Assembly: GCA_903918755.1 (NCBI GenBank)
Contig: CAIXFN010000034.1
Span: 156,618-220,617 of the forward strand
DNA from: an uncultured Pedosphaera sp.
GTDB taxonomy: Bacteria > Verrucomicrobiota > Verrucomicrobiia > Limisphaerales > Pedosphaeraceae
Reading direction: 5' to 3'
Length of the DNA: 64,000 bases
The position numbers were made by a program, and so were the translations under genes. The notes below the pieces were generated by a model. That model did no database searches and was not told the origin of the DNA. It saw nothing but the letters and a program-made list of their open reading frames with translations. How positions within the stretch are numbered: the stretch's first letter is position 1; the number at the start of each line of letters is the position of its first letter. Of the stretch, positions 2,473 through 49,323 are shown one piece after another.

Positions 2473-2475
2473 CCC

Positions 2476-6315: not shown

Positions 6316-9084
6316 GTGCGATTGCCAATGGCTGATAATCAGGGTGCGCGCGGAAACCGGGGGCTGGTTTGGGGGATCCAGTTGCTTGCGCTCCTATTCC
6401 TCCCCTGGACGGTGGCGGCCCAATTGCCCACGGCGCGGTTGCTGACGCTCTCGCCGCCGGGGGGAATGATTGGCAGCACAGTTGAGGTTACCGTCGTCGG
6501 GCAGGACTTGAACGCCGCGACCCGGCTGTCGTTTAACACTTCTGCCATTACGTCGGAACTTCGCGCGGGAGATGACCCCAATTCCCCGGACACTCACACG
6601 TTTATTCTTCATGTGGCGACCAATGCCCCACCGGGCATTTATGAAGCGCGCGTAGTGGGCCGTTTCGGCATCTCCAACCCGCGCGCCTTTGTGGTCGGCG
6701 ACCGGCCGGAAGTCCTGGCCCCGGCCACGAACGAAACCCTGGCTTCCGCCGCGCCGCTCGCGACCGGGACAACGGTGGATGGCCATGCCAGCGCGGGGGT
6801 GGCGCAGTATTTCAAAATCGCGGCCCGCGTCCACGAGCGGCTCATCATCACCTGCCAGGCCGGGGAGATTGATTCTCGACTGGTTCCCAACCTGCTGCTT
6901 TATGATGCGAATGGCCGGGAGCTGGAACGGGGCCGACGGAATGGCCTGATTGATTACACGCCCACCACGGATGGCCCGCTGGTGCTAAAGCTATCTGACG
7001 CCAGTTTTCGCGGTGGGGGCGAATTTTTTTACCGCCTCTCCGCGGGCACCGGACCACATCTGCACTTTGCTTACCCGCCGGCCGGAGTGCCTGGCACCCG
7101 GGCAAAATTCACGCTCTACGGTCGCAATCTACCCGGCGGCACCCCTTCTGGAGAAACCGGGATGGATGGCAAACACCTGGACCAACTGGCCGTGGAAATT
7201 GATTTACCGGCGGACGTCCACGCGGAAAGTCCCGGCACGATTGGCGGCTCCGTCGCGGGCGTGGGTCTGCGCGATTTTGCGTATGCGCTATCCTCCCCCC
7301 AGGGAATATCGAATCCCTTGCGGATTAGTTTGGCCAGTGCCCCTCTGATGGCATCGCCCGCAACCAATTCACCCGGCGATCCCGCCCTGCAACTCACCCT
7401 GCCCGGTGAGTGGGCCGGGCGATTTGCCCCGCGCGGTGGCTGGAGTTCCGCGAACTTTACCGCGAAAAAAGGGGACACTTACCGGGTCGAGGTTTACTCC
7501 CACCGTCTCGGCTGGGCCACGGCCCCTTTTGTGGTCATTCAACGCGTTTCCAAAAACGAAAAAGGGGAGGAGCAAATCTCCGAAGTGCAGGAATTGACCG
7601 GAGCGGATACCAATCTCGGCGGGGTGGAATACAAATCCGCTCATCGGGATCCGGCGGGACGCTTCTCCACGCCGGAGGACGGCACCTACCGTGTGCGGAT
7701 CCGCGACCAATTCGCGAATGCGTCGGCCGCAACTCCCCCAGTATTCCGGATCGCTTTACGCCGGGAGAACCCCGATTTCGACCTGCTGGTGGCGGCGCCC
7801 GCTCCGCCGCCCGCCAACAAGGATACCAAGGAAGCCCAGGTATGGACTCCGTTCCTGCGCCGGGGGGAGACTCAACCGCTGAAAGTCACTGCCTTCCGCC
7901 ACGACGATTTCACCGGAGAAATCCAGCTCCGTGTGGAAGGTTTGCCGCGGGGCATCACAGTGGGGCCGGCCCATATTGAAAAAGACAAGAACATCGCCAC
8001 CGTCCTGCTGACCGCCAGCGCCGAAGTCAGTGAATGGGCCGGTCCGATTCAAATTTTGGGGAAAGCGATGATTGCCGGCACCGAGACGACGCGAGTGGCC
8101 CACGCAGCCACCGTGCGCTGGACCGTGCCGGATTACAACACGGAGGCGGTATTCTCCCGCTTGACGGCCGATTTTGCCGTGGCGGCCAGCGGCGTGGAAT
8201 CCGCCCCTTTAAGCATTTCACCCGCCGAGAATAAAATCTGGGAGGTCCCCGCCGGTGGCAAACTCACGATTCCATTGCGGGTGGTGCGCAATGGTGATTT
8301 TGGTGCCACCCTCAAAATGAAAGCCACCGGATTCGCCGGCCTCGACTCACTAAAAGAAATTGAAATCGCCGGGTCAGCCACGAATGCCACTTTCGACCTC
8401 GAACTGGGAGAGCACAAGCTCGACCCCGGTACCTATACCTTTCATCTCACCACGCAAACGACCGGTAAATACCGGCGTCTGGCGGAACTGGCCAAATACG
8501 CGGAAGAACTCGCCCAAACCGCCGAAAAAATGGCGAACGAAGCCAGCCAGGCGGTGAAGACTACGGCCGAAGCGAGTCAGGCGGCGGCGAAAGCAATGTT
8601 TACCGCAGAAACTCAACGCAAAGAGGCGGCGACGGCACTCGCCCAAACTGAACAGGCCGTGAAGGAAGCGGCCGAAATGGTGCGGAAGGCCGAGGAAAAA
8701 CTGGCCGCCGCCACCGCCGCCCAATCCGCTCAAACGGACGCTGCCGATTTGGTTGCAGCAAAAAATGCGGCGATGGCAGCATTGGAAAAAGCCCGGGACC
8801 GAAACCAGTCGGCCCAGGAAGCCCAAGCAACCGCCGCCGCCCGCGCCGCCGAGGCGGGGAAATCGGTCGAGCGGGCTGCGGCAGCCCGGCAATTGGCCAC
8901 CACCGCGGAAACGGAAGCCAAGAGCCGTCTCCCGGCGGCCGAGGCGAAACGCGACGCGGCCAAAAAGCGCTCCCAGGAGGCCGCCAAGACGTCCGAACCC
9001 CGGGATGTCACGATCACTGTCCACTCGGCTCCCATCACGATTCAGGTCACCCCTGCACCCGCCGGGAAACCCGCCGCCAAATGA
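6316..9084 (+). CDS. Secreted hypothetical protein with a C-terminal Ala/Glu/Lys-rich coiled-coil tail of ~230 aa
   Basis: 922-aa ORF. Hydrophobic signal segment LVWGIQLLALLFLPWTVAAQ, a beta-rich N-terminal ~690 aa, then a low-complexity coiled coil (AEKMANEASQAVKTTAEASQAAAKAM...AEAKRDAAKKRSQEAAKT). It sits between two coupled genes in the same operon. Confidence 0.6.
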   Translation: MRLPMADNQGARGNRGLVWGIQLLALLFLPWTVAAQLPTARLLTLSPPGGMIGSTVEVTVVGQDLNAATRLSFNTSAITSELRAGDDPNSPDTHTFILHVATNAPPGIYEARVVGRFGISNPRAFVVGDRPEVLAPATNETLASAAPLATGTTVDGHASAGVAQYFKIAARVHERLIITCQAGEIDSRLVPNLLLYDANGRELERGRRNGLIDYTPTTDGPLVLKLSDASFRGGGEFFYRLSAGTGPHLHFAYPPAGVPGTRAKFTLYGRNLPGGTPSGETGMDGKHLDQLAVEIDLPADVHAESPGTIGGSVAGVGLRDFAYALSSPQGISNPLRISLASAPLMASPATNSPGDPALQLTLPGEWAGRFAPRGGWSSANFTAKKGDTYRVEVYSHRLGWATAPFVVIQRVSKNEKGEEQISEVQELTGADTNLGGVEYKSAHRDPAGRFSTPEDGTYRVRIRDQFANASAATPPVFRIALRRENPDFDLLVAAPAPPPANKDTKEAQVWTPFLRRGETQPLKVTAFRHDDFTGEIQLRVEGLPRGITVGPAHIEKDKNIATVLLTASAEVSEWAGPIQILGKAMIAGTETTRVAHAATVRWTVPDYNTEAVFSRLTADFAVAASGVESAPLSISPAENKIWEVPAGGKLTIPLRVVRNGDFGATLKMKATGFAGLDSLKEIEIAGSATNATFDLELGEHKLDPGTYTFHLTTQTTGKYRRLAELAKYAEELAQTAEKMANEASQAVKTTAEASQAAAKAMFTAETQRKEAATALAQTEQAVKEAAEMVRKAEEKLAAATAAQSAQTDAADLVAAKNAAMAALEKARDRNQSAQEAQATAAARAAEAGKSVERAAAARQLATTAETEAKSRLPAAEAKRDAAKKRSQEAAKTSEPRDVTITVHSAPITIQVTPAPAGKPAAK

Positions 9085-12000
9085 AGTCCCTGTTGTTCAC
9101 CGGCCTGCTCCTGCTCGCGGTAACGTCGCGGGCCGCCGACCCTATCCCGGCGGACCCGCAGCTCAAGCCCCTCGCGATTGGCAAAATTGACCACCCCGCG
9201 CCGGTTGATTTTGAGCGCGAACTCCTGCCCGTCCTCCGCAAGAACTGTCTGGCTTGTCACAACAAAACCACCAGCAAAGCCGGACTGATCCTGGAGACAC
9301 CCCAGGACATCCGGCAGGGCGGTGACTCAGGCAAAGTCATCGTGCCTGGGCGCGCCGGCGACAGTCTTTTGCTGAAAGTGGCGGCGCACCTGGACAAACC
9401 CATCATGCCGCCCCGGAACAACAAGGTCGAAGCGGGTGACCTCTCGTCCGCAGAATTAGCCCTGTTGCAACTCTGGATCGAACAAGGGGCGACCGGGGAA
9501 GTGCGCGGAGTCGGCGAAATCTCCTGGCAACCGCTGCCTCCCGGCTTGCAACCGATCTACTCGGTCGCGCTGAGCCCCGATGGCCAATTCGCCGCGTGCG
9601 GTCGGGCCAACCAGATTTTCATCTATCATTTACCCACCAAGGAATTGGTAACTCGCTTGACCGATCCGCAACTGGTTGCCTCCAGCGGCGCCGGAAGGCC
9701 CGGGGTGGCACATCGCGATTTGGTCAACGCCCTGGCCTTCAGTCCGGACGGCCAATGGCTGGCTTCCGGTGGTTACCGCGAAATCAAACTCTGGCATCGA
9801 CCCCGCGATGCGAAGAAATTCACCCTCCCCCACCCCACCAGTCGCGCGGTCCTGACCGTGGCCACCAGCCCCGATGAACGCTGGGTCGCCACCGGTGATG
9901 ACCAGGGAGTCATCGAACTCTGGAACCTGGCCACCGGCCAATCATTGCACCACCTGGCCGGTCATCAAGGGGCAATGAGCGCGCTCCAATTCTCGCCGGA
10001 CAACTCCCGTCTGGCTTCCGCGGCCGCGGACCATACGATCCGCATTTGGGATTGCGCTACCGGCCGCCAATTGCTCCAGGTGACGACCACGGCGGATATC
10101 AATGCGATTGCCTGGCTGCCGGGCGATGGCCAGTTCCTGTCTGGTGGCACGGATGCCGTAATCCGGCTGTGGTTCGCCGATGTGATCCGTGGCGACCTGC
10201 GTCCCTTGCGGGAATTTCGCGGGCATGAAGGCGCGGTCACCGCTCTGGCAACGTGGCCGGGCGAACCCGCCCAGTTTATTTCCGCCAGCGGGGATGGCAC
10301 GGCGCGTTTTTGGGATCTCAATGAGGGCAAGGTTTTGCGGCAAATCAAGCCCGGCGGCCCTGTGTTGGCGCTGGCCATTCGCCGCGATGGACAAAGGCTG
10401 GCCACCGCCGGGTTGAACCAGCCGGCCAGATTGTGGGATGCCAAAGAGGGCAAGGAAATCGCGACCTTGACGGGCGACTACGATCTGGAAATTGCCATTC
10501 CGGAAGCCGGGCGCACCGCCACCCTGGCCACCAATGAACTGGCCTTTCGCAAAACCGCCTGGCAGACCGCCACCAATGAGCATCACGTCCAACAAACCCG
10601 CCTGGAAAAAGCCACCAAAGCCTTCGCCGATGCGGAAAAGCCTTTTCAGGAAAAGCAGACCAAGGTGACGGAAGCCAGGACCGCCCGCGAGGCTGCCGAA
10701 AAGGCCCTGGCAGAGTTAAAGGATTTGCAACTGGCCACCACCACCTTGGAAGCCGCCGAAAAGGCCGCTAGTGAAGCCCGCGACCAATTGAAGACGGCCC
10801 AGGAAAAATCGCCGTCGGATCCAAAGATAGTTGCCGATTTGACGACGGCCAGTGAGGAAAAAACCAAACTATTGGCCGCCGCCAAAACCACGCGCGACGC
10901 CTTTCCCTCCGCCACGGTGGACAAATTCAAACAGGCCAACGAAAAACTCAACGCCACCACCAAGACCCTGGCGGATGCCGACGCCGAGTTGAAAAAAGCC
11001 GCCCTCCCCCGTTCCGCGGCGGAGACGGAGCAGCAGTTGGCCACCCAGGCGGTGGCGACTTCGGCGGCGGCTGTGACCAACGCGCAAACCCGCATCGAAC
11101 AGGCGGAATTGACCCGGCAAAGCGCCGCAAACGCCTTGGAAGCCGCGCGGCAGGCGGCAGCCGCAGCTTCCCGGAGCATGATTCGGGCGCTGGCCTTTTC
11201 CCGGGATGGCCGCACTTTGCTAACCGCCGGAGATGACGGCGTGCTCCATGCCGCCAGTGCGGACAACGGCAACGCTTGGGAATCCTACCATGGCCACCAG
11301 GGCGCCATCTTTGCCCTGGCCTTCGCCGGCGCCGACCGGTTGGTCTCCGGTTCCGCTGACCGCAGTGCCGTAGTCTGGGACCTGCGGACAACCTGGAATT
11401 TGGAGCAGACTCTGGGCACCAATGGTCCCATCGCCGACCGGGTCAACACGCTACGTTTCAGTGTGGATGGCCGACGGCTGGCCAGCGGCGGCGGCGAGCC
11501 AACCCGCGGCGGGGAAATCGACCTGTGGCAGGTCAGCGACGGTAAATTACTCCAATCATTCAACCGCGTGCATAGCGATGCGGTCTTCAGCCTCGATTTC
11601 TCCCGGGATGGCCACTTTCTGGCTTCCGGGGCCGCGGACCGTCAGATCAAAATCCTCGATCTGGATTCCGGCCAGGTCGTTCGCACCCTCGAAGGCCACC
11701 TCCACCATGTTCTCGGTGTCAGTTGGCGCGCGGATGGCCATGCCCTGGCCAGCGCGGGAGCGGATAACGTCATCAAAATCTGGGACCCCGTGACCGGAGA
11801 GCGGAAAAAGAATATCGAAAGTTTTGGCAAGGAAGTCACCGGCATCAACTACGTCGGGATCACTGATCAGGCCGTCGCCTCCTCCGGGGACCACGGGGTG
11901 GCGTTGTTCAAAGAAAACGGCGACCGGGTTCGGTCCTACAGCGGCGGTACGGACTTCATGAATGCCGTCGCGACGACCGCGGATGGCAAAATCGTGATTG

Positions 12001-12086
12001 CCGCGGGACAGGATGGCGTGCTGCGGGTCTGGAATGGCCTGACCGGTGATGGGATGGCCACATTCGAACCACCCAAGCTCAACTGA
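9081..12086 (+). CDS. PSCyt1 (planctomycete cytochrome c-like, CLACH motif) + WD40 beta-propeller protein with a central coiled coil
   Basis: ATG overlaps the upstream stop (ATGA). N-terminal block ELLPVLRKNCLACHNKTTSKAGL...PIMPPRNN is the PSCyt1 domain. Multiple WD40 units (GYREIKLWH, HTIRIWD, DRQIKILD, DNVIKIWD). A ~220-aa Ala/Glu/Lys coiled-coil insert resembles the tail of the upstream gene. Confidence 0.8.
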   Translation: MKSLLFTGLLLLAVTSRAADPIPADPQLKPLAIGKIDHPAPVDFERELLPVLRKNCLACHNKTTSKAGLILETPQDIRQGGDSGKVIVPGRAGDSLLLKVAAHLDKPIMPPRNNKVEAGDLSSAELALLQLWIEQGATGEVRGVGEISWQPLPPGLQPIYSVALSPDGQFAACGRANQIFIYHLPTKELVTRLTDPQLVASSGAGRPGVAHRDLVNALAFSPDGQWLASGGYREIKLWHRPRDAKKFTLPHPTSRAVLTVATSPDERWVATGDDQGVIELWNLATGQSLHHLAGHQGAMSALQFSPDNSRLASAAADHTIRIWDCATGRQLLQVTTTADINAIAWLPGDGQFLSGGTDAVIRLWFADVIRGDLRPLREFRGHEGAVTALATWPGEPAQFISASGDGTARFWDLNEGKVLRQIKPGGPVLALAIRRDGQRLATAGLNQPARLWDAKEGKEIATLTGDYDLEIAIPEAGRTATLATNELAFRKTAWQTATNEHHVQQTRLEKATKAFADAEKPFQEKQTKVTEARTAREAAEKALAELKDLQLATTTLEAAEKAASEARDQLKTAQEKSPSDPKIVADLTTASEEKTKLLAAAKTTRDAFPSATVDKFKQANEKLNATTKTLADADAELKKAALPRSAAETEQQLATQAVATSAAAVTNAQTRIEQAELTRQSAANALEAARQAAAAASRSMIRALAFSRDGRTLLTAGDDGVLHAASADNGNAWESYHGHQGAIFALAFAGADRLVSGSADRSAVVWDLRTTWNLEQTLGTNGPIADRVNTLRFSVDGRRLASGGGEPTRGGEIDLWQVSDGKLLQSFNRVHSDAVFSLDFSRDGHFLASGAADRQIKILDLDSGQVVRTLEGHLHHVLGVSWRADGHALASAGADNVIKIWDPVTGERKKNIESFGKEVTGINYVGITDQAVASSGDHGVALFKENGDRVRSYSGGTDFMNAVATTADGKIVIAAGQDGVLRVWNGLTGDGMATFEPPKLN

Positions 12087-12152
12087 GGCCGAAAGCCTGA
12101 CCGGAAACCGCGGGGAAGGAGAACCATCGTCCCCCTTACCAGCCGCCCCAGA

Positions 12153-12842
12153 TCAGCGTTCCTCGCTGCCGAGGAACTTGTAAACCAAGGCTCCCAACAC
12201 GGCACCGATGATCGGGGCCACCCAGAACAGCCAGAGTTGGGCAATCGCCCAGTCACCGACAAACAGCGCCACGCCCGTGCTGCGGGCGGGATTCACCGAG
12301 GTATTGGTCACCGGAATGCTGATCAGATGAATCAAGGTCAATCCCAGGCCGATGGCCAGCGGAGCAAAACCGTTTGGCGCGCGCCGGTCGGTGGCACCAA
12401 GGATGATCAGGAGAAACATCATCGTCATCACGACTTCCGTGACAAAGGCGGACTCCAGCGAATAGCCCCCGGGTGAATGCGCCCCGAAGCCGTTGGAGGC
12501 GAATCCCGCGGTGACGGAAAAACCCGGCTTGCCGCTGGCGATGATGTCCAGCACCCCGGCGCCGGCGACCGCACCGAGGACCTGCGCAATAATATACGGA
12601 ACGAGCTGCGCGGCGGGAAAACGGCCACCCACCCATAACCCCACCGAGACGGCGGGATTGAGATGGCAACCCGAAATGTGACCAATGGCAAACGCCATGG
12701 TCAGCACCGTGAGGCCGAAGGCGAATGACACGCCCAGCAAACCAATGCCCACATTCGGAAAGGCCGCAGCCAGCACCGCGCTGCCACAACCGCCGAGCAC
12801 CAGCCAAAATGTTCCGAAGAATTCCGCACCGTATTTTTTCAT
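12153..12842 (-). CDS. aqpZ: Aquaporin Z
   Basis: 229 aa with six-TM MIP-family architecture and both NPA boxes ([10 protein letters not shown] and NTSVNPARS). Near full-length similarity to bacterial AqpZ by recall. Confidence 0.9.
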
Positions 12843-13019
12843 TCTGTTTGCCCTTTCATATTATCCGCCAGAACAATCTGGCGGGCGTCACTGGGGCAAT
12901 GAACGCCCCAGCCACCGAGCCACCGGGTGCTCAATCCCGATCAAAGACGGATCAGGCACACCTTTTGGCGGGGCTGTTTGTATACGGTCAAGCTGCTGCT
13001 GGCAATTCGATTTGCTAAA

Positions 13020-16000
13020 TCACCTTGGGGTCGGATTTTGGGACTTTACCAACTGGGGCGGTAGAGCCGACCAACCGCCACCGAGAGCTTTGATGAGTTG
13101 CACGGTGGCCAGCCGTCGCTGGCCGGATATCCGCGCAGCTTCGCGCTGGGTACCCAGGGCCGCCCGCTCGGCGTCCACAACTTCCAGGTAGCTGGCCGCC
13201 CCGCCATCATAGCGCACCCGCGCCAGCACGGCGCTCCGCCGGGCCGCGGCGAGGGCGCGCGCCACCGCCTCCGCCTGGGCGGAGAGGATGCCCAAGCCAG
13301 TTAGTTCGTCCTGCACCTCCGCGAAGGCTACCAGAACTTGCTGGCGATAGGTGGCGACGGCCTCCTCCCGGGCTGCCCGGGCCCGGGCCACCCCCGCCTT
13401 GTTGCGACCGCCGGCAAACAGGGGCAGCGAGAGGCTGGGCCCCAGCGACCACACCCGGCTGTCCCAGTTGAACAAGGATTCGACATCAGCACTCAGAAAG
13501 CCACCGCTGCCCGTGAGCCGCAGCACGGGAAAATAGGCGGCCTTGGCCACGCCGATCCGCGCGTTGGCGGCCGCGAGTTGCCGCTCGGCGAGGGCAATGT
13601 CCGGCCGGCGTTCCAACAATTCGGCCGGCAGGAAGGCGGGAATGACCGGCGGTTCGTTGGTGTAATGCCCGCCGTCTAGGAAGGAAAAATCCGGCGCGGC
13701 GGCACCGACGAGAACCGCCAACGCGGTCTGCAAAGTGGAGCGGTTCCGGTCGAGCGCCAGCAGATCGGATTCCGCACTCGCGAGTTCGGTGTTGGCGCGA
13801 GCCAGGTCCAATTCCGGCACGCTGCCGGCCTCAAACCGGGTCTGCACCAGATCCCGGGCCTGTCGACGCAGACTGGTCGTTTCCCGGAGAATGCCGCGTT
13901 GGTTGTCGAGACTCCGCAAGGTGAAATAGGTGTGGGCCACCTCGGATTGCAGGCTGAGCCGCACATTGACAAAGTCCGCTTCCCGCGCCTGCGCATCGGC
14001 GCGGGCGCCTTCAAATCCCCGCCGGATGCGCCCCCACAGGTCCACCTCGTAACTCAAATCCAGCGGCACGCTGAGCGTGTTGGCGGTGAGAGCGCCGAAG
14101 GCGGGCTGTTGGTTCGGCGAGTAGCGCTGCCGGATGGCGGACGGCTCAAAACCAAGACTGGGAAAAAACTCGCTCCGCGCCTCGCGCGCCACCGCCCGGG
14201 CCTGGTTCACCCGGGCGAAAGCGGCCTGCAAAGACTGATTATTCGTCGTAGCCATCTCCACCAATCGGGTCAACGCGGGATCCTGGAACAATTCCCACCA
14301 CGGTCCCTTGGCCAGAGCATCAGCGGGCGCGGCGGCTTTCCAAAGTGCATTGGTCGCGTCCTGGAATCGGGCGGGAACGGCGTTGGTAGGCCGGACGTAA
14401 TCCGGTCCCACGGTCAGCACCCCGGCGGTGACGGACGACGGAGACCAGGCCTGGCTCACCACCAGCAAGAACAGGACGGTGGCGGCCGCAGCCGGCATGA
14501 GCGGCTTCGCGGGATGCCCTGGATCGATCGTGATGACCGGATGGCGTTTCCGTGACATGACCAGTTGGTAAAAGACGGGGGTCAGGAAGAGGCCGAAGAA
14601 CGTGACCCCGATCATTCCGGCGAAGACCGCCACCCCCATGGCCTGGCGCATCTCGGCGCCCGCCCCGTGACTGACCACCAACGGAAACACGCCGGCGATA
14701 AAGGCAATACTGGTCATGAGGATCGGGCGCAACCGCAGTCGCGCCGCTTCGATCGCGGCGGCGACGGGGTCCAAACCCTCGTCCTGCTTCACCTTGGCGA
14801 ATTCCACGATCAGAATCGCGTTCTTGGCGGCCAGCCCCATGAGCACGATCAGGCCGATCTGTGTAAACACGTTGTTCTCCCCGCCTTTCAGCATCACTCC
14901 CACCAACGCGCTCAGGAGGGTGAGCGGAATGATCAGGATGATGGCAATCGGCATCCGGAAACTTTCATACTGGGCCGCGAGCACCAGGAAGACGAGCAGC
15001 AGACACAGCGGAAACACATAGATGGCGGTGTTGCCGGCGATGAGTTGCTGATACGTGAGTTCGGTCCACTCGGAGCCCATACCCTTGGGCAGGGTTTCCG
15101 CGGCCAGGCGGGTCATCAATGCCTCGGCCTGGCCGGAACTGAATCCGGGAGCCGGGCTGCCATTGATTTCAGCGCTGAGATAGCCGTTGTAGTGCATGGC
15201 CCGATCCGGACCGTAGGTTTCCTTCACCTGCATTACCGAGCCAAGCGCGACCATCTCGCCCTTTTCCGTCCGCGTCTTGAGCCGGGCGATGTCTTCGGGT
15301 TGCCGGCGGAATTTCTCATCCGCCTGGGCAATGACCTGGTAGGTGCGGCCAAACCGGTTGAAATCATTCACATACAACGACCCGAGATAAACTTGCATCG
15401 TCTCGAACAACGAATTGAGGGGGATCCCCTGGCTGAGCGCCTTGGGCCGGTCCACATCGGCTTCGAGTTGCGGCACGTTTACCTGGTAGCTGGAGAACAA
15501 TCCGGCCAGGCCCGGCGTTTGATTCGCTTTGCCGATCAATTGCCAGGTGGCGTTGTAGAGCGCCTCATAACCCAGATCGGCGCGGTCCTCCACCTGCAAA
15601 CGGAACCCGCCAATCGTGCCCAAACCCTGCACGGGCGGCGGCGGGAAAATGGCGATATAGGCCTCCTTGAGTTGCGCGAATTCCGCATTCAATTGTCCCG
15701 CAATCGCGAAGCCGGAAAGTTCCGGCGATTTGCGATCCTCGAATGGTTTCAAAGTCACGAACACAATGCCTGAGTTCGGGCTCACGGTGAATCCGTTGAT
15801 GCTCAAGCCCGGAAACGCCACCGAGGATTGCACGCCGGGATGTTTCAAGGCGATTTCGGACATCTTCCGGATAACGGCATCCGTGCGGTCGATGGACGCG
15901 GCGTCAGGCAATTGCGCAAAGGCCACCAGGTATTGCTTGTCCTGGGTCGGCACGAAGCCCGTGGGCACATGCTTGAAGCCCCACCCCGTCAGCACCAGCA

Positions 16001-17666
16001 GGCCGAGGTAAACTACCACGGCAATCCCGGTGCGGCGGATGACCGCCTGAACGCCCCGCGCATAGCGCCCGGCCGACCAGGCGAAGAAGCGGTTGAAGGG
16101 TCGGAAAATCCAGCCGAAGGCGGCATCCATGATGCGCGTGAGTCGGTCTTTGGGTTGATTGTGGCCCCGCAGCAGGAGGGCGCTCAACGCAGGCGAGAGG
16201 GTCAGGGAATTGAACGCGCTGATCACGGTGGAAATCGCGATCGTGATGGCGAATTGCTTGTAGAACTGGCCGGTCAACCCGCTGATGAAGGCCGTGGGAA
16301 TGAACACGGCGGCGAGCACCAGCGCGGTGGCGATAATGGGCCCGGTCACCTCGCTCATCGCGCGCCGCGTGGCGTCGAAAGGTGAGAGGCCGTTGGCGAT
16401 ATTGCGCTCCACGTTTTCGACCACCACGATCGCGTCATCCACCACAATGCCGATCGCCAGGACAAGGCCGAACAGGGAGAGCGCATTGATGCCGAAACCC
16501 AGGAAATGCATCAGCGCAAAAGTGCCCACCAGGGAAACGGGCACCGCCGCCAGCGGGATGATGGAAGCGCGCCAGGTTTGCAGGAAGAGGATCACCACGA
16601 TTACCACCAGCACGATCGCTTCCAGGAGGGTGTGCACCACCGCCTCAATCGAATCGCGCACAAAGACGGTCGGATCGTAAACAATGTCATAGCTGAGGCC
16701 GTCCGGAAAGTTGGCGCTCATTTCCTTCATCGCGCGGCGGACGTTGTCGGAGAGCTGGATCGCGTTGCCGCCCGGCAGTTGGAAAATGGGCAGGGCCACC
16801 GCGGTCTGGTTATTCAGCAACGAGCGCAAGGCGTATTCCGCGGCTCCCAGTTCCACCCGGGCCACATCCCGCAGAAAGACCTTTTCGCCCCGCGGGCTGG
16901 TCTTCACGATGATGCGGGAGAACTCCTCCTCGGTAATCATGCGGCCCTTGGCGTTGATCTGGACCTCAAATGCCGCCGGGCTGGACAACGGCTGCTGGCC
17001 GATGGCACCAGCCGCCACCTGAACATTCTGCTGCCGGATGGCGTTGACAATATCACCGGCGGTCAGGCCGCGCGCAGCGGCCTTGCCGGGATCAATCCAC
17101 ACCCGCATCGCGTAGTCCCCCGCTCCGAAGATCTGTACCGTCCCCACCCCAGGCAGACGCGCGAGCACATCCTTGACTTGCAGGGTCGCGTAATTGCGGA
17201 TGTAAACATCGTCATAACGGCCGCCCGGCGAAAATAGATGCACCACCATCGTCAGATCCGCCGAGGCCTTCACTGTGGTGACCCCCAACCGGCGGACTTC
17301 CTCCGGCAATTTGGGCAGGGCCTGGGAAACCCGGTTCTGCACCTGGACCTGGGCCTTGTCAATGTCCGTCCCCAGTTTGAACGTGACGGTCAGCGTCATC
17401 GCGCCATCACTCGTGGCCTGGGAAAACATGTAGAGGGAATTCTCGACACCGTTGATGGCCTGCTCGAGCGGGGACGAGACGGTTTCGGCGATGACCTTGG
17501 GATTGGCCCCGGGGTAGGCGGCGCGGACCACGACCGTGGGCGGGACCACCTCTGGATACTCGCTGATGGGCAGCCGGAACATGCAGATGAGGCCCACGAG
17601 GAAAATGATGGTGGACAACACCCCGGCAAAGATCGGGCGTTTGATGAAAAAAGTGGAAAAGTTCAT
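13020..17666 (-). CDS. RND multidrug efflux permease (AcrB/HAE1-like, ~1050 aa) read continuously in frame into an outer-membrane factor (NodT/TolC/OprM-like, 492 aa)
   Basis: Single 1548-aa ORF. Residues 1 to ~1040 are a classic RND permease (MNFSTFFIKRPIFAGVLSTIIFLVGL...). After a linker (...MSRKRHPVITIDPGHPAKPL) an internal ATG at 14498..14496 begins MPAAAATVLFLLVVSQAWSPSS...GPDYVRP, an OMF with its signal peptide and the conserved GPDY motif. No stop codon separates the two parts in any nearby frame that I could read. Confidence 0.75.
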   Translation of the reverse strand: MNFSTFFIKRPIFAGVLSTIIFLVGLICMFRLPISEYPEVVPPTVVVRAAYPGANPKVIAETVSSPLEQAINGVENSLYMFSQATSDGAMTLTVTFKLGTDIDKAQVQVQNRVSQALPKLPEEVRRLGVTTVKASADLTMVVHLFSPGGRYDDVYIRNYATLQVKDVLARLPGVGTVQIFGAGDYAMRVWIDPGKAAARGLTAGDIVNAIRQQNVQVAAGAIGQQPLSSPAAFEVQINAKGRMITEEEFSRIIVKTSPRGEKVFLRDVARVELGAAEYALRSLLNNQTAVALPIFQLPGGNAIQLSDNVRRAMKEMSANFPDGLSYDIVYDPTVFVRDSIEAVVHTLLEAIVLVVIVVILFLQTWRASIIPLAAVPVSLVGTFALMHFLGFGINALSLFGLVLAIGIVVDDAIVVVENVERNIANGLSPFDATRRAMSEVTGPIIATALVLAAVFIPTAFISGLTGQFYKQFAITIAISTVISAFNSLTLSPALSALLLRGHNQPKDRLTRIMDAAFGWIFRPFNRFFAWSAGRYARGVQAVIRRTGIAVVVYLGLLVLTGWGFKHVPTGFVPTQDKQYLVAFAQLPDAASIDRTDAVIRKMSEIALKHPGVQSSVAFPGLSINGFTVSPNSGIVFVTLKPFEDRKSPELSGFAIAGQLNAEFAQLKEAYIAIFPPPPVQGLGTIGGFRLQVEDRADLGYEALYNATWQLIGKANQTPGLAGLFSSYQVNVPQLEADVDRPKALSQGIPLNSLFETMQVYLGSLYVNDFNRFGRTYQVIAQADEKFRRQPEDIARLKTRTEKGEMVALGSVMQVKETYGPDRAMHYNGYLSAEINGSPAPGFSSGQAEALMTRLAAETLPKGMGSEWTELTYQQLIAGNTAIYVFPLCLLLVFLVLAAQYESFRMPIAIILIIPLTLLSALVGVMLKGGENNVFTQIGLIVLMGLAAKNAILIVEFAKVKQDEGLDPVAAAIEAARLRLRPILMTSIAFIAGVFPLVVSHGAGAEMRQAMGVAVFAGMIGVTFFGLFLTPVFYQLVMSRKRHPVITIDPGHPAKPLMPAAAATVLFLLVVSQAWSPSSVTAGVLTVGPDYVRPTNAVPARFQDATNALWKAAAPADALAKGPWWELFQDPALTRLVEMATTNNQSLQAAFARVNQARAVAREARSEFFPSLGFEPSAIRQRYSPNQQPAFGALTANTLSVPLDLSYEVDLWGRIRRGFEGARADAQAREADFVNVRLSLQSEVAHTYFTLRSLDNQRGILRETTSLRRQARDLVQTRFEAGSVPELDLARANTELASAESDLLALDRNRSTLQTALAVLVGAAAPDFSFLDGGHYTNEPPVIPAFLPAELLERRPDIALAERQLAAANARIGVAKAAYFPVLRLTGSGGFLSADVESLFNWDSRVWSLGPSLSLPLFAGGRNKAGVARARAAREEAVATYRQQVLVAFAEVQDELTGLGILSAQAEAVARALAAARRSAVLARVRYDGGAASYLEVVDAERAALGTQREAARISGQRRLATVQLIKALGGGWSALPPQLVKSQNPTPR

Positions 17667-17704
17667 GGCGGATAAGCCTTTGGATAAACTGCGGGGACGA
17701 GCGC

Positions 17705-18946
17705 TCAGCGCGCGGCGACGTGGGTCCCGGCGGGCGCTGTCGGCGTCTCGGTTTCCGGGGACACCAGGGCGCCCGGGCGGACCCGTTGCAGCCCGTTGAC
17801 TACGATCTTATCGCCGGCTTGCAGTCCGTCGCGGACGATGCGCCGGCCGTCCAGCATCGAGCCGAGTTTCACGGCCCGGTACGCGACCGTATTCGACGCC
17901 GTGAGGGAAAGGACGAACTTCTGGCTTTGGTCGGTGCCAATCGCCCGCTCGTCCACCAGCAGCACCGCGTGCCGTGCACTCACTGGCACGCGCACCCGGG
18001 CGTACAATCCAGGCACCAGTTTCTGATCCTGGTTGTCGAGTTCCGCCCGGAGCAGAATACTCCCCATGGCATTGTTCAGGCGGTTATCAAAGGATTCGAT
18101 AAATCCGGCATGGGGAAACCCGGCCTCGTCCGCCAGGCCAACTTCCACCCCCACCTGCCCCGCCGCGTTGGTGGACTGACCGCCCGCGCGTTTGAGTTCC
18201 TGCAAGCGCAGGAAGGTGGCTTCATCAATATCCGCGTACAAATGGACGGGGTTTTCGGAGACCACGGTGGTCAGCAGCGTCGCCGCGCCATCCACGCCGC
18301 TGACGTTGTTGCCCGCGGTTACGTAGGCGCGACTGACGATGCCATCGATAGGCGAACGGATCTGCGCCCATTCCACATTGAGCCGGGCCGTGGCCACCGC
18401 AGCTTCGGCGATGGAAACCGCGGCCCGCGCCTCGGCTTCCCGACTCCGGCGCTGGTCCGCCTCTTCCCGGGAGATGGCGCTCTTTTCCAGCAACGAGGCG
18501 GCGCGGCGACCTTCCGTGCCCGCCAACTCGAGGCGCAGTTTGGCCTGCTCCAATTCTCCGGTGGCGCGCTGCAAGGCCGCCTCGAACGAGCGGGCGTCGA
18601 TGGTCATCAGCAGGTCACCTTTCTTGACCCGCTGGCCGGAAGCGAATTGGACCGCCGTGATATAGCCCGAAACCCGTGGCCGGATCTCCACGGTTTCCTT
18701 GGGTTCGATGCGCCCGGTGAATTCCTGATATTCCACCAGTTCGCGCTGTTCCACCGGGGCGACCACCACCCCGGGGGCGGCAGGCGGCGGTTGCGGCCCA
18801 GCGGCTTTGGAGGGGTGCTGCACGATGACGGCGGCCACGGCGGCGACAGCCAAAAGGGCGCCGACGGAAAGGATTCGGATGGGGCGGTTCATAAGCGAGG
18901 GGATGAGTTTTGGGCGGTTGGGCAGTTGGCGGAAATGAGGGGGCAT
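17705..18946 (-). CDS. RND efflux periplasmic adaptor (membrane fusion protein, HlyD family)
   Basis: 413 aa with N-terminal TM segment, coiled-coil hairpin and beta-barrel blocks typical of MFPs (RIEPKETVEIRPRVSGYI..., GDLLMTIDARSFEAAL). Lies immediately upstream of the RND gene. Confidence 0.85.
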   Translation of the reverse strand: MPPHFRQLPNRPKLIPSLMNRPIRILSVGALLAVAAVAAVIVQHPSKAAGPQPPPAAPGVVVAPVEQRELVEYQEFTGRIEPKETVEIRPRVSGYITAVQFASGQRVKKGDLLMTIDARSFEAALQRATGELEQAKLRLELAGTEGRRAASLLEKSAISREEADQRRSREAEARAAVSIAEAAVATARLNVEWAQIRSPIDGIVSRAYVTAGNNVSGVDGAATLLTTVVSENPVHLYADIDEATFLRLQELKRAGGQSTNAAGQVGVEVGLADEAGFPHAGFIESFDNRLNNAMGSILLRAELDNQDQKLVPGLYARVRVPVSARHAVLLVDERAIGTDQSQKFVLSLTASNTVAYRAVKLGSMLDGRRIVRDGLQAGDKIVVNGLQRVRPGALVSPETETPTAPAGTHVAAR

Positions 18947-19206
18947 CAGGCGGCGATTTCGAAAGCCGCCGGAGCGGGGGCAAAGCTGGACCGCGCGACG
19001 CGGGCCAGGTGGGAAAACTGCCAGGCCAATTCGGCCGCCAGCACCGGGAGAAGCAACCCGGGATAGGGCGTTTCGGCGGCCAGGCTTTCCGCCTGCTCCA
19101 AGGCGACGGGCAGGACGATCGGATTCAGTTGGGAGTCGGCCCCCAAATTTGCCAAGACAGCGCGGCGGAGTTCGGGGCGGATGGGCAACAATGGCACGGT
19201 GTTCAT
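18946..19206 (-). CDS. Small hypothetical protein (86 aa) between the TetR and MFP genes
   Basis: ORF whose stop overlaps the MFP start. No recognisable domain. Real coding status is uncertain. Confidence 0.3.
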   Translation of the reverse strand: MNTVPLLPIRPELRRAVLANLGADSQLNPIVLPVALEQAESLAAETPYPGLLLPVLAAELAWQFSHLARVARSSFAPAPAAFEIAA

Positions 19207-19282
19207 AGGATTCAGTGTTTCGAGTTCAGTTCAATCTCCAGCCCGGAGTGGACTGGTCGGTTTAGTAATCAGGCAAAAAAAA

Positions 19283-19891
19283 TCAAACTACTGCCGCCTC
19301 ACGAACCCCCAGGATGCATTTTACCCCGGCTTCCAACGCGGCGATGGGCGCGAGACTATTCTGGATCCGGGCTTCCATCATGGCCCCGTGAACATATTGA
19401 ATCACCACTTTGGCGGTGGTGGCCGGGTCCGGGGCATGAATCAGTCCCAAATAATGGGCATCCCGGATCGCCGCCTCGTAGTACTTGAAGTATTCCTGCA
19501 GCGCGTTGTCGATCCAGACCCGGATATGCTCATCCTGGGTCCCCATCTCGCTCCCCAGGCTGCACATGGGACAACCCACCACACAACCTTTTTCTTCCTT
19601 CAGGCGGGCCTGCTCCTCCAGGCCCTCACGGAACAACCGGCTGAGGCGCTCCAGCGGTGGAACCAGGGGCGAAAACATTTCGTTCAGCGCCGACTGCCGG
19701 TTTTTCCACTCCGCCTCCAGAGCCGCGATCGCCAGATCGGACTTGGATTTGAAAAAATGATAGAAACTGCCCTTCACCACGCCCGCCGCCGCACAAAGAT
19801 GATCCACGCTGGTGGCCCCGTAGCTGTTCCTCCAAATGAGGTCCAGAGCGGCCGCGAGCAGCTTCTCTTTGGTGTTCATGACGCGGGACAT
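19283..19891 (-). CDS. TetR/AcrR family transcriptional regulator
   Basis: 202 aa. N-terminal HTH block LLAAALDLIWRNSYGATSVDHLCAAAGVVKGSFYHFFKSKSDL is typical of TetR_N. Sits at the head of the efflux operon. Confidence 0.85.
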   Translation of the reverse strand: MSRVMNTKEKLLAAALDLIWRNSYGATSVDHLCAAAGVVKGSFYHFFKSKSDLAIAALEAEWKNRQSALNEMFSPLVPPLERLSRLFREGLEEQARLKEEKGCVVGCPMCSLGSEMGTQDEHIRVWIDNALQEYFKYYEAAIRDAHYLGLIHAPDPATTAKVVIQYVHGAMMEARIQNSLAPIAALEAGVKCILGVREAAVV

Positions 19892-19961
19892 GTCTTTCTT
19901 TGATCAGTTTGCCGGCACCGATGCAAGGCCATTCGGCGACCGACACTGACACCATCGCACG

Positions 19962-19981
19962 ACTAGACCGGTTAGTCTAGT
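19962..19981. promoter_or_regulatory. Candidate TetR operator (7-bp inverted repeat ACTAGAC-N6-GTCTAGT)
   Basis: Sequence actagaccggttagtctagt lies ~70 bp upstream of the TetR start codon in the promoter region of the efflux operon. Palindromes at this position are typical for TetR autoregulation. Confidence 0.3.
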
Positions 19982-20042
19982 GCTTTTTTAAAAGTTTTTT
20001 GCATTCGCCGACCGTGGTGCTTCTGGCATTCTAAAACCATCC

Positions 20043-20990
20043 ATGAACTGTGCGCTCCATTCATCCCAGATCCGGCAGGGCAGTCGCGGCGAGCGTTGGG
20101 CTCGCCAAATCGGACAGATTACCTTGATTTGTCTGGGTGCGCTCAGCGTCGCTGGTCAACCCGCGCCCAGCTGGCCGCTGCAAATCAAAGTGAATCCCGG
20201 GACTGTCGTGGGACACATCTCCCCCGATTTTCTCGGATTCGGTTATGAAACCTCGGCGGTGGCGCAAACCAATTATTTCAGTGCCACGAACACCACGCTG
20301 ATCCAACTCTACCGAAATCTCGGATCGAACGGTTTGATCCGCATCGGTGGCAACGTCTCCGACCATACCCGGTTTATGCCTGATGGCCAGCCAGCGCCCC
20401 GGACGGAACGGGAGCTCACGGTGATCAACCGGCAAAGTCTGGCCGATCTGGCCGGTTTTGCCCGCGCCACCGGCTGGCGCGTCATGTGGGGCCTCAACCT
20501 GGGCACTGGTTCCCCGGCGGAAGCGGCGGAGGAAGCCGTGGCCGTGGCCGCGGCTCTGGGCGACCGCTTGCAATCGTTCGAAATCGGCAATGAGGTGGAT
20601 CTGCACGGCGGCTACCATGAATAGCTGGCGTTTGCCCGCGCGGGCCATGGCAATTTGCTGCCGGTAGAAATCACCAAGTCCGAAGTCAATGTCACCGCGT
20701 ACGCCACCCGGGAAGGTGATGGTCCCCTCTGGATCACCGTGTTGAACAAAGACCTCAACCGGGAGGCTGAATTGAATATCGAACTGCCAACCGGCTATGG
20801 GACAACAGAAGCCTTTCCCTTGCGAGCGCCCGCGGTGATCAGTAGGGAAGCCCCCGATTTCGCCGGCGGGAAAATTACCAGCGAAGGCCACTGGAATCCC
20901 GGCGAGTCGACCAAGCTCAAGGTCCTGGACGGTGCCGGGCATTGGCAATTGTCCCCTGCCAGCGTGGTGCTGGTGCGTTTGCGCCGCTAA
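20043..20990 (+). pseudogene. Glycoside hydrolase family 79-like remnant (in-frame TAG, catalytic core apparently deleted)
   Basis: ORFs 20043..20624 and 20655..20990 are in the same frame, separated by TAG at 20622. The N-terminal part carries the GH79-type block ending at the acid/base motif EIGNEVD. The sequence after the stop jumps directly to a C-terminal beta-sandwich-like domain. Total length (~315 aa) is well short of the typical 450-500 aa. Confidence 0.45.
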
Positions 20991-21079
20991 ACTGCTACTG
21001 AATTGCGTTACTCGGCAAGCTCTTCCCAAAGGGCAAATTGTCATTCGCGCCCGCGGGTTTTTGGATTAAGCTAGCCGCC

Positions 21080-22903
21080 ATGGCGCGCTATTCACGCAAT
21101 GATCAGGCCGGAGTGGAACTCCCCAAAGCCAAGCTAAACCGGGAATCCCTCGGCCAGGCTTTGGAGTTGTTCAAATATCTGCGACCGTACCGCGCCCGGT
21201 TCGGCGCGGCGCTGCTCGCGCTCATGGCCGGCAGCGTGCTCAGTCTGGCGTTCCCCTACCTGGCCGGAAGGATCATCGACGGCGTGATGCCCACGGCGGG
21301 AGCCGGCAGCGGACATCTCGTGGGAGCGGACCGCACCGCCCTGCTGCTGGTGGGGATTCTCGCCCTGCAGGCGGGATTTTCCTATTTCCAGGCGCTTTCC
21401 CTGGCGACTGCGGGACAACGCTGCCTGGTCGATTTGCGGCGGGACACCTATGCCCGTCTGATTTCCCTCCCGATGTCCTTTTTCGCCCAACGCCGCGTCG
21501 GGGAACTTGCGAGCCGGCTTTCCGCCGACTTGATCCAGATGGAGGACACATTGACGACCATCCTGCCCCAGTTTCTGCGCCAATCCATTTTGCTGATCGG
21601 CGGCATCGGATTGATCGCCGCCACGTCCCTCAAACTGACGGGCGTCATGCTCGCCAGCCTGCCGGTCGTGATCGCCATCGCGGTGGTATTCGGTCGCCGG
21701 ACCCGCAAGATCTGGCGCGAAGCCCAGGACCGGCTGGCCGACACCGCCACCATCGTGGAGGAAACCCTGCAAGGCATCGTGAACGTAAAGGCCTTCGCCA
21801 ATGAGACCTATGAACTCCAACGCTACCACGAGGGGTTGGGCAAATTCCTGACCATCACCCTGCGCGGCGCCCGCCTCCGGGCGGCCTTCGTCTCGTTCAT
21901 CATCTTCGCGCTGTTCGGTTGCATCGTTCTCGTGCTCTGGTCCGGCGCCCACATGCTGGAACGGGGCGAGATCACGATGGGCGGACTCACCCGCTTCGGC
22001 CTCTGCACCACCTTTGTGGCCGGCGCCATGGGCCAGTTCGCGGAACTCTACAGTCAGCTCCAAAAAGCCATCGGGGCCACCCAGCGCGTGCGCGAATTAC
22101 TACGGGAACCGGTTGAAGTCGAAACCCACCTTGGCCCGCCCGCCCCCTCCACCCTGCCCCGCCTCAAAGGCGAAGTGGCCTTTGAAAACGTTTCCTTCAC
22201 CTACCCCTCGCGCACGGGTGTCGAGGTGCTCCATGAGGTAACCCTGGCGGCGGCACCTGGCCAGCGGATCGCGCTGGTCGGTCCCAGTGGCGCTGGCAAA
22301 TCCACCCTCATCTCCCTCCTGCTCCGACTTTACGACCCGACCTCCGGCCGGCTCCTCATCGACGGCCGCGACGCCCGGGATTACCCTCTCACCGAACTAC
22401 GCGGCCAGATGTCGATGGTGCCGCAGGAAGTGCTGCTCTTCGGCGGCAGCATCGCGGAAAACATCGCCTACGGCAAACCCGGGGCCAATCAGGCGGAAAT
22501 AGAACAAGCCGCGCGACAAGCCAACGCCCATGATTTCATCACGAAGTTCCCCGAGGGCTACGCCACGCTGGTGGGCGACCGCGGCATCAAACTCTCCGGT
22601 GGCCAGCGCCAACGCGTTGCCATCGCCCGGGCCATCCTCAAGAACCCCGCCATCCTCATCCTGGACGAGGCCACCAGCGCCCTCGATTCCGAGAGCGAAG
22701 GCCTGATTCAACAAGCCCTGGAAACCTTGATGCGCGGCCGCACCTCCTTCATCATCGCCCACCGCCTCGCCACCGTGCGCCACGTGGACCGCATCATCGT
22801 TATCGCCGACGGCCGCGTCGTCGAATCCGGCACCCACGAAGAGCTTCAGGCACTGGAGGCCGGCGTCTACCGCCGACTGGCTGCCTTGCAATTCCGGGAT
22901 TGA
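21080..22903 (+). CDS. ABC exporter, fused permease + ATPase (MsbA-like)
   Basis: ORF 21038..22903; start probably the M at 21080. Six-TM exporter domain followed by Walker A (GPSGAGKST), signature LSGGQRQRVAIARA and Walker B ILILDEATSALD. Confidence 0.85.
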   Translation: MARYSRNDQAGVELPKAKLNRESLGQALELFKYLRPYRARFGAALLALMAGSVLSLAFPYLAGRIIDGVMPTAGAGSGHLVGADRTALLLVGILALQAGFSYFQALSLATAGQRCLVDLRRDTYARLISLPMSFFAQRRVGELASRLSADLIQMEDTLTTILPQFLRQSILLIGGIGLIAATSLKLTGVMLASLPVVIAIAVVFGRRTRKIWREAQDRLADTATIVEETLQGIVNVKAFANETYELQRYHEGLGKFLTITLRGARLRAAFVSFIIFALFGCIVLVLWSGAHMLERGEITMGGLTRFGLCTTFVAGAMGQFAELYSQLQKAIGATQRVRELLREPVEVETHLGPPAPSTLPRLKGEVAFENVSFTYPSRTGVEVLHEVTLAAAPGQRIALVGPSGAGKSTLISLLLRLYDPTSGRLLIDGRDARDYPLTELRGQMSMVPQEVLLFGGSIAENIAYGKPGANQAEIEQAARQANAHDFITKFPEGYATLVGDRGIKLSGGQRQRVAIARAILKNPAILILDEATSALDSESEGLIQQALETLMRGRTSFIIAHRLATVRHVDRIIVIADGRVVESGTHEELQALEAGVYRRLAALQFRD

Positions 22904-22953: not shown

Positions 22954-23307
22954 TCAAACGACTATTCGAATTGCGGAGCGGTCCAATTCGACAAGTGAAT
23001 TGCTTTCTAAGGCTTCGATTACCGCCGGAAGGTGCTTCTCAAACAAATCGAGAAAATCGCGTATTCGCATGTTTCCGGTGCGGATTAGGAGCAATTTTGG
23101 GGGGCGCCCAGAAAGCAGGTGCGAATAATAGAAATCAGTGTCTTTGGAAACGAGAACGCGGTGTTGCCGTAGCGCGACCTGAATGAGTTCGCCGTCGGGA
23201 GTGCGGTTTTGATCCGGTAGTTCCAACGTATGGATGGCATCATGCCCTTCCTGACGAAGAAGCCGGCAAAGTGAGGGCGGCAGATGGGCATCCACCAGGA
23301 ATTTCAT
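22954..23307 (-). CDS. DUF5615 (PIN-like) protein, putative toxin of a DUF433/DUF5615 pair
   Basis: 117 aa, MKFLVDAHLPPSLCRLLRQEGHDA..., characteristic of DUF5615. Start overlaps the stop of the DUF433 gene (ATGA). Confidence 0.7.
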   Translation of the reverse strand: MKFLVDAHLPPSLCRLLRQEGHDAIHTLELPDQNRTPDGELIQVALRQHRVLVSKDTDFYYSHLLSGRPPKLLLIRTGNMRIRDFLDLFEKHLPAVIEALESNSLVELDRSAIRIVV

Positions 23308-49315: not shown

Positions 49316-49323
49316 GGTTCGGT

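Follow-up and report, generated by a model that had tools for sequence, protein, structure and literature searches.

The window analysed here is a 64,000-nt stretch of contig CAIXFN010000034.1 (GenBank assembly GCA_903918755.1, positions 156,618 to 220,617 of the forward strand) from an uncultured Pedosphaera sp. of the Verrucomicrobiota, and it carries on its minus strand an efflux cluster in which a resistance-nodulation-division (RND) inner-membrane permease and an outer-membrane factor (OMF) are encoded by one open reading frame (ORF) of 1548 aa. That the two proteins read as a single ORF had been claimed in an earlier note on this DNA and is borne out, as all the sequence strings quoted there are present in the translation, which contains the joint stretch MSRKRHPVITIDPGHPAKPL-MPAAAATVLFLLVVSQAWS followed by GPDYVRP, and an internal Met at aa 1057 whose ATG lies at 14498. 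The fused ORF, its parts and the two other genes of the efflux cluster are as follows, with arrows marking predicted cleavage sites by signal peptidase I (SPase I).

13020..17666, minus strand: RND::OMF precursor ORF, 1548 aa, 167 kDa, ATG start, stop codon at 13020-13022.
14559..17666, minus strand: RND permease moiety of the MexF/OqxB/AdeG group, aa 1-1036, with full-profile matches; its transmembrane helix (TM) 12 ends in ...TPVFYQLV.
14499..14558, minus strand: linker MSRKRHPVITIDPGHPAKPL, aa 1037-1056, basic (SRKRH), putative n-region of an internal signal peptide, predicted to be cytoplasmic.
14457..14498, minus strand: h-region and putative TM13, MPAAAATVLFLLVV, aa 1057-1070, starting with the non-conserved Met (ATG 14498).
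14424..14456, minus strand: c-region SQAWSPSSVTA, aa 1071-1081, with the predicted SPase I site VTA↓G.
13023..14423, minus strand: predicted mature OMF, NodT/OprN-like, aa 1082-1548, 467 aa, 50.4 kDa, beginning GVLTVGPDYVRP, assigned by TIGR01845, AlphaFold and Foldseek.
17705..18946, minus strand: membrane fusion protein (MFP), a MexE/OqxA-like periplasmic adaptor of 413 aa, matching NCBIfam RND-peri-MexE (351.7 bits) and TIGR01730 (253.6 bits against a cutoff of 94.9).
19283..19891, minus strand: TetR-family regulator, the first gene of the cluster, with Pfam TetR_N and TetR_C_13.

The first part of the fused protein matches NCBIfam RND_permease_1 (NF000282) at aa 4-1037 over profile positions 1-1028 of 1029 (1443.7 bits against a cutoff of 1250), TIGR00915 (1150.1 bits against 940.35) and Pfam ACR_tran (aa 3-1036, 1179 bits), its closest solved relatives being AdeG (8yr0) and OqxB-type chains. 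It contains the proton-relay motifs VVDDAIV (408-414), AAKNAIL (946-952) and RLRLRPIL (976-983), which, going by the motifs, we take to be the equivalents of AcrB D407/D408, K940 and R971 in TM4, TM10 and TM11. The polypeptide does not end after TM12 and runs on for 512 more residues, whereas unfused relatives stop 25-60 aa past TM12. The second part matches TIGR01845 (outer_NodT) at aa 1086-1531 over profile positions 12-460 of 460 (394.8 bits against a cutoff of 210.05) and holds two Pfam OEP stretches, and an AlphaFold model of aa 956-1548 shows an ordinary OMF protomer with long helical hairpins and beta strands, whose top Foldseek matches are OprN, OprM, TOprJ1, SilC and CusC (E ~1e-19 to 1e-17), the 'palmitoylated OprM' structure 4y1k being also among the matches. 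The near-full-length profile matches, the presence of the proton-relay motifs and the predicted OMF fold suggest that both moieties are functional. Among the best 60 of 98 matched PDB chains, none carries both domains, and the longest is 1069 aa.

The earlier note had taken it that the pump and the OMF never share one polypeptide, a premise that proves wrong at the level of the databases, and had named a sequencing error or lost stop codon as one explanation and a genuine fusion as another. The identical 1548-aa protein occurs on at least five contigs in at least two ENA assemblies, flanked there by the same genes. In a search of 5.8 billion protein clusters with the fused protein as query, the best 120 matches are all fused (1527-1610 aa, PF00873 plus PF02321), at 68-81% identity except for one 99% near-duplicate, and their named sources are Verrucomicrobiales, Verrucomicrobia and Pedosphaera metagenome-assembled genomes (MAGs). 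Codon-position GC at the junction (0.63/0.55/0.84) is the same as in the remaining ORF, and the coding signature in third-position GC (GC3) is unbroken through the joint. A separate OMF gene was found neither among the window ORFs scanned nor among the genes called in the loci of two fused relatives, the 81% identical P0002 and the Kiritimatiellota protein P0162.

An assembly or sequencing artefact, or a pseudogene, in which a lost stop or a frameshift had produced an unreal or non-functional fusion, could draw on the stop and frame change found at the joint in some close relatives (L004 at 60% identity, L083 and L087). Against it stand the identical ORF in independent assemblies, the 120 best matches that are all fused despite divergence to 68-81% identity, the same architecture in other phyla on single-contig genomes (CP120722, 4.43 Mb, and a 6.06-Mb contig) and in Bryobacter aggregatus, and the end-to-end profile matches, intact catalytic motifs and GC3 continuous through the joint. 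We reject this explanation as scarcely credible. The fusion is genuine, of which we are nearly certain, and maintained in evolution, and its occurrence is far beyond chance, recurring as it does in independent assemblies, in more than 120 diverged homologues and in other phyla. A lost stop codon is likely the evolutionary origin of the fusion rather than an artefact.

Whether relatives have a stop codon at the joint had been proposed as a check on mis-assembly. A stop followed by a separate, adjacent OMF gene is indeed present in L004, L083, L087, L117, L121 and L142, but because these are bona fide split genes their stops do not show that the window is mis-assembled. The split relatives were drawn from GTDB genomes and from metagenome contigs chosen on the RND C-terminus only, some of the search counts being lower bounds, and the nucleotide comparison used loci more distant than P0002 and the identical-protein contigs. 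The separate OMF genes of these unfused relatives have their own Met, a Lys/Arg n-region and a signal peptide ending in a site of the type A-x-A↓G-LLTVGPDY, as in the following starts.

L083, overlapping the RND gene at ATGA: MKHTRITSLLASGLALMTGQLTA↓GLLTVGPDY
L142: MNSKRFKRLAVGFLSLVIACGSASA↓GLLTVGPDY
L117: MFKKQ...SARA↓GLFSVGPDY
L004 (60% identical): MKKRGFFEAK...TAAG SPKVGPDY

Other separate OMFs of relatives start with MKHTR.. and MNSKRFKR.., and those of Akkermansia, Brevifollis and Prosthecobacter have Cys-less signal peptides of the SPase I type, with A-x-A-Q before GP[DN]Y. The window protein, too, has no Cys between TM12 and GPDY, and the earlier remark that its OMF segment lacks the lipobox Cys is correct; since the separate OMFs of these three genera are also Cys-less, the missing lipobox is a habit of the Verrucomicrobia and no peculiarity of the fusion.

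The joint itself was aligned between the window protein and its 120 homologues (n=121), and was measured from TPVFY at the end of TM12 to GPDY. This segment is 42-63 residues long, starts basic with a median net charge of +4, and continues with a Pro/Ala-rich stretch that AlphaFold leaves disordered (pLDDT <50). The best hydrophobic 15-mer of the segment has a Kyte-Doolittle mean of 1.65-2.74 across the 121 sequences, and in the window protein the h-region is predicted to be helical (model residues 105-119, aa 1060-1074). Ser or Pro helix breakers follow, and then the family motif [AVST]-x-A↓G-x-L-T-[VI]-G-P-D-Y, in which Ala occupies position -1 of the predicted cut in 111 of the 121 sequences, Ala, Val, Ser, Thr or Leu position -3 in 118, and Gly position +1 in 108. 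An n-h-c layout combined with the -3/-1 rule is the hallmark of SPase I substrates, and the window protein presents this order internally, after the predicted cytoplasmic C-terminus of the pump, as SRKRH, MPAAAATVLFLLVV and SQAWSPSSVTA↓GVLTVGPDY. By homology, the predicted cut falls at A1081↓G1082, between nt 14424 and 14423, with no Pro at +1. These shared features show that the joint is homologous to the N-terminal signal peptides of the split relatives.

Taking these observations together, we propose, at a probability of roughly 70%, that the fused protein is a precursor cut by SPase I at A1081↓G1082 to give a pump and a non-lipidated OMF. AcrB-type RND pumps have 12 TM helices and a cytoplasmic C-terminus, and the RND moiety would insert in the inner membrane in this manner. 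The basic linker, the 14-residue hydrophobic core and the A-x-A c-region would represent the former OMF signal peptide, now internal, which would span the membrane as a 13th helix in N-in/C-out orientation and lead the OMF moiety through to the periplasm; this orientation suits OMF export because the RND C-terminus ends in the cytoplasm. SPase I would then cut after VTA, releasing the 50.4-kDa non-lipidated OMF to trimerise and enter the outer membrane, while the 116.9-kDa pump would retain the linker and TM13 as a C-terminal tail, and the mature pump, OMF and MFP would assemble into an ordinary tripartite pump of the MexEF-OprN kind. The earlier note had called a genuine fusion mechanistically odd, but it ceases to be so once the joint is taken for a cleavable signal peptide within the chain. 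That the precursor is cut, which enzyme cuts it, what becomes of TM13 and whether the fusion brings any advantage are what we infer; as to the last, we speculate that the fusion might offer 1:1 stoichiometry of the two trimers, co-translational delivery of the OMF via the pump-engaged translocon, and an unbreakable linkage. The junction-spanning peptide of the uncut chain includes SSVTAGVLTVGPDYVRP, and the semi-tryptic N-terminal peptide of the predicted mature OMF would be GVLTVGPDYVRPTNAVPAR.

Fusions of the same architecture exist in other phyla, most of them with a lipobox at the joint. An exhaustive HMMER search with aa 850-1548 against 1.84 billion representatives yielded at least ten further full-length fusions of 1372-1541 aa, 31-46% identical to the window protein, and several fragments, with the distant fusions coming from Bryobacteraceae/Acidobacteriota, Kiritimatiellota bacterium B12222 and Muribaculaceae (taxa of relatives are the names in the database records). 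In 13 of the 15 more distant fusions an internal h-region is followed by a canonical lipobox and then by GPxY, for example LLTGC/AAGPNY, LSGC/MMGPNY and LGGC/MSVGPDY. The Kiritimatiellota fusion (P0162) lies in a TetR-MFP-fusion operon on the 4.43-Mb single-contig genome CP120722, a Planctomycetota MAG (L002) has an LLAGC lipobox, and L082 and L084 also combine an h-region with a lipobox. A further database search, with the Acidobacteria protein as query, found an entire fused family at 45-80% identity, including Bryobacter aggregatus (P0308) and the 6.06-Mb contig. All 30 fused proteins checked from Bryobacteraceae and other lipobox-type families have the h-region, the lipobox Cys and GPxY, in the pattern L-x-[GAS]-C followed by xxGPxY, and a few members of the window protein's own family carry a lipobox as well (P0018 with VVSGC, P0110 with VAAGC/AVGPDY and L039 with STGC).

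To our knowledge the lipobox Cys has no role besides processing by Lgt and Lsp. Because this Cys would be meaningful only if these enzymes act, its retention inside the fusions is the strongest comparative argument for processing at the internal signal peptide, and in the lipobox lineages Lgt/Lsp processing at the same position would free a lipoprotein OMF. The fusions in other phyla are probably independent events, given their identity of only 31-46% to the window protein. A single ancient fusion is unlikely, as the window lineage, the lipobox-bearing Planctomycetota-like lineage and the main Verrucomicrobia lineage branch separately in a neighbour-joining tree that carries no support values.

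Several points weigh against cleavage by SPase I at A1081↓G1082. The cut site is assigned by the -3/-1 rule and homology, and sequence by itself does not prove cleavage. The window joint is atypical of its family, being without the LMKLGxKK and LGSAG motifs, and it has both a second possible site, SQA↓W after A1073, and an in-frame ATG with which the h-region begins, so that some internal initiation may take place in this particular organism. The 120 of 120 fused matches overstate the fused fraction, since these homologues were retrieved with a fused query, and of 80 loci in an unbiased metagenome sample, for which the RND C-terminus was the sole criterion, 16 are fused. Moreover, Lgt and Lsp are not known to process an internal lipobox in any natural protein.

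The in-frame ATG invites a reading that the earlier note had also considered, in which most of the OMF stems from a start of its own at ATG 14498 (Met1057), the fusion being a by-product of read-through that is tolerated. The window lineage forms a branch outside the main fused clade, and its fusion may be more recent, which is in keeping with such a start. A ribosome-binding site had been suggested as a check, and no Shine-Dalgarno sequence was found before 14498; yet none precedes the RND, MFP, aqpZ or tetR starts either, so its absence is uninformative and does not exclude a start in an operon whose genes generally lack one. Of the 121 aligned sequences, however, the window protein and its 99% twin alone have Met1057; the 81% identical P0002 has PPAAPVGIVHLLL at this place, the remaining family has LGSAGAAAG, and a Met occurs in 28 other sequences at scattered positions. 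An OMF starting at Met1057 would be without a Lys/Arg n-region, unlike every separate OMF gene of the relatives, and such a start would leave unexplained why more than 120 diverged sequences keep the frame open across linkers of 42-63 aa. A promoter and terminator scan of 12000-20200 gave no more sites than shuffled sequence and none near the joint, which is weak evidence. Internal initiation is thus not supported, the Met not being conserved and the segment after it having no Lys/Arg n-region, and we regard it as unlikely.

The precursor could also be processed otherwise than at A1081↓G1082, namely at SQA↓W, through a different protease of the periplasm or membrane, or at the linker's cytoplasmic side. 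The small-x-small motif SQA directly follows the h-region, and the Pro/Ala-rich linker, being predicted to be disordered, would be accessible to proteases. However, it is A-x-A↓G, four residues ahead of GPDY, and not SQA that is conserved in the family and in the unfused relatives, and the lipobox lineages have their Cys at the A-x-A↓G position, which makes processing elsewhere doubtful.

A further argument for cleavage comes from the distances at the joint. The N-terminus of OprM-type OMFs, with its acylated Cys, is located at the outer membrane, and the assembled pump and channel span the periplasm. In the window protein, no more than 4 residues (G-V-L-T) lie between the predicted cut and GPDY and 15 between the hydrophobic core and GPDY, and in the family the distance from core to GPDY is 0-16 residues, mostly 9-12. 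Because so short a tether cannot reach from a segment in the inner membrane to an OMF N-terminus at the outer membrane, cleavage would be required. The fusion might nevertheless stay uncut, with the hydrophobic segment as a permanent 13th TM anchor and the OMF working while covalently attached to the pump, and the predicted helicity of the h-region would agree with this. Besides the tether, whose reach is exceeded by the span of pump and channel in the AcrAB-TolC and MexAB-OprM structures, a permanent anchor would leave the conserved A-x-A or lipobox Cys unexplained and would sit poorly with the interchange of split and fused forms among close relatives, and we consider it very improbable.

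Cleavage of the precursor by SPase I would also accommodate the way fused and split genes are distributed. Fused forms are commoner than split ones in the Verrucomicrobia clade, and in a quick neighbour-joining tree of the RND part, without support values, split forms are nested among fused ones. Because both forms are interleaved in this rough tree, fused and split genes seem to be interchangeable ways to the same mature proteins. In one relative, L141 (metagenome contig WNFR01153908.1, about nt 1291-1800), the OMF frame past the RND stop is broken across two frames, which may reflect either the decay of a split gene or an error of assembly.

The pump resembles the MexEF-OprN/OqxAB/AdeFGH type in its order of regulator, MFP, RND and OMF, with the RND moiety nearest OqxB/AdeG, the MFP nearest MexE/OqxA and the OMF nearest OprN/OprM/OprJ. 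Its RND transport chemistry is unchanged, the pump looks like an ordinary one of the MexEF-OprN type, and the mature transport mechanism is presumably identical. It differs in that pump and channel lie in one ORF without a stop, the OMF having neither its own N-terminal start nor a lipobox, and in that the regulator is of the TetR type, whereas mexEF-oprN of P. aeruginosa is regulated by the LysR-type MexT. What is unusual and apparently undescribed is that an inner-membrane pump and an outer-membrane channel come from one gene via an internal signal peptide.

In biogenesis the nearest precedent known to us is FbcH, the cytochrome b-c1 precursor of Bradyrhizobium japonicum, in which the signal peptide of cytochrome c1 lies internally and was reportedly found by Thony-Meyer, James and Hennecke in 1991 to be the place of cleavage. 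There too, a polytopic inner-membrane protein with a cytoplasmic C-terminus is joined to a periplasm-facing partner via the partner's signal peptide, and a single gene yields two subunits of the same complex, but both FbcH products stay in the inner membrane, whereas the freed product here must reach the outer membrane, and cleavage of FbcH has reportedly been demonstrated by experiment, whereas here we infer it. The separate NodT OMFs of Verrucomicrobia belong to the same OMF family and share the predicted mature N-terminus ..A-x-A↓G/Q-x-GP[DN]Y and the Cys-less signal peptides of the SPase I type, and are likewise encoded directly downstream of the RND part; they differ in having their own Met and Lys/Arg n-region, behind a stop and usually a frame change. 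The lipobox-type fusions share the succession of RND, short basic linker, hydrophobic core, cleavage motif and GPxY OMF, and, where checked, the TetR-MFP-fusion operon, but are 31-46% identical, have shorter linkers and carry an L-x-[GAS]-C lipobox that implies Lgt/Lsp processing and a lipidated OMF. In flavivirus-type polyproteins alternating membrane-spanning segments serve as internal signal sequences, at which host signal peptidase likewise cuts the mature proteins apart, although these act in the eukaryotic endoplasmic reticulum, give many products and are evolutionarily unrelated.

Across the full texts searched, a major review of tripartite pumps and the Saier-laboratory surveys, a set that leaves subscription papers mostly uncovered, no description of a natural RND-OMF fusion was found, only engineered ones. 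The databases already contain hundreds of fused sequences, for which JGI automatic names join both family names and the NCBI name is 'RND transporter permease subunit' only. Because the NCBI name covers the RND part alone, gene inventories miss the OMF and count too few OMFs for Verrucomicrobiota, Acidobacteriota and others. We think it fairly probable that RND::OMF fusions represent a recurrent, previously undescribed route to tripartite pumps through cleavage of an internal signal peptide, by SPase I here and by Lgt/Lsp in Acidobacteriota, Kiritimatiellota, Planctomycetota and Bacteroidota, with the pump keeping a 13th helix from the spent signal peptide. If so, one translation product would be bound for two membranes, extending the 'one gene, two proteins' principle of FbcH to the outer membrane, and the lipobox case would be the first natural lipoprotein known to us that matures from the middle of a polypeptide. 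The lipobox lineages would offer a direct test of Lgt/Lsp action on internal sites, the toggling between fused and split forms among close relatives is a natural experiment on the benefit of fusion (stoichiometry, co-translational targeting or linkage), and a pump-channel pair co-expressed at 1:1 could aid structural or reconstitution work.

Between the MFP gene, with Pfam HlyD_D23, Biotin_lipoyl_2 and HlyD_3 domains, and the fused ORF downstream on the same strand lie 38 nt. One public gene call starts the MFP at Met19, 18 codons later, giving 395 aa. The TetR-MFP-RND::OMF order is found also in the P0002 and Kiritimatiellota P0162 loci. Between tetR and the MFP gene lies an 86-aa ORF without a Pfam match (18946-19206, minus strand), which ends in a stop overlapping the ATG of the MFP gene (TGATG); gene calls on both identical-fusion contigs include it, and it is absent from the P0002 locus. 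A gap of 177 nt separates the fused ORF from an aquaporin Z gene downstream on the same strand (12153-12842, minus strand; NF003838, 411 bits), which is kept on the identical-fusion contigs. Since it is absent from the P0002 locus, aqpZ probably does not belong to the efflux unit.

Convergent with the efflux operon is a pair of plus-strand genes that is kept beside it on other identical-fusion contigs, comprising a 922-aa ORF without a Pfam match (6316-9084), which overlaps by 4 nt the start of a 1001-aa ORF (9081-12086) whose protein has many WD40/beta-propeller matches and to which the public gene call adds PSCyt1. The pairing of DUF1501 with PSCyt2/PSD1 (DUF1549/DUF1553), typical of the Planctomycetes-Verrucomicrobia-Chlamydiae (PVC) bacteria, occurs twice, at 1093-6308 (plus strand), where two DUF1501 genes stand in tandem, and at 47912-52332 (minus strand). 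This pairing supports an origin of the window from the Planctomycetota-Verrucomicrobiota, and the best homologues of the fused protein likewise point to a Verrucomicrobiota-like taxon. Beyond an ABC transporter gene (21038-22903), a DUF433 protein of 77 aa and a PIN-domain protein of 117 aa are encoded at about 22954-23537 on the minus strand, with coordinates converted from public gene calls, and the pair looks like a toxin-antitoxin module. The second-longest ORF of the window, 1444 aa at 29379-33713 (minus strand), has no Pfam match at E <= 1e-5. A full-length DnaA with DnaA_N, Bac_DnaA and Bac_DnaA_C domains is encoded at 43252-44607 (plus strand), and the chromosomal replication origin may lie near it. 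Finally, an 818-aa protein encoded at 53414-55870 (minus strand) consists of a Ser/Thr protein kinase fused to NHL/beta-propeller repeats.

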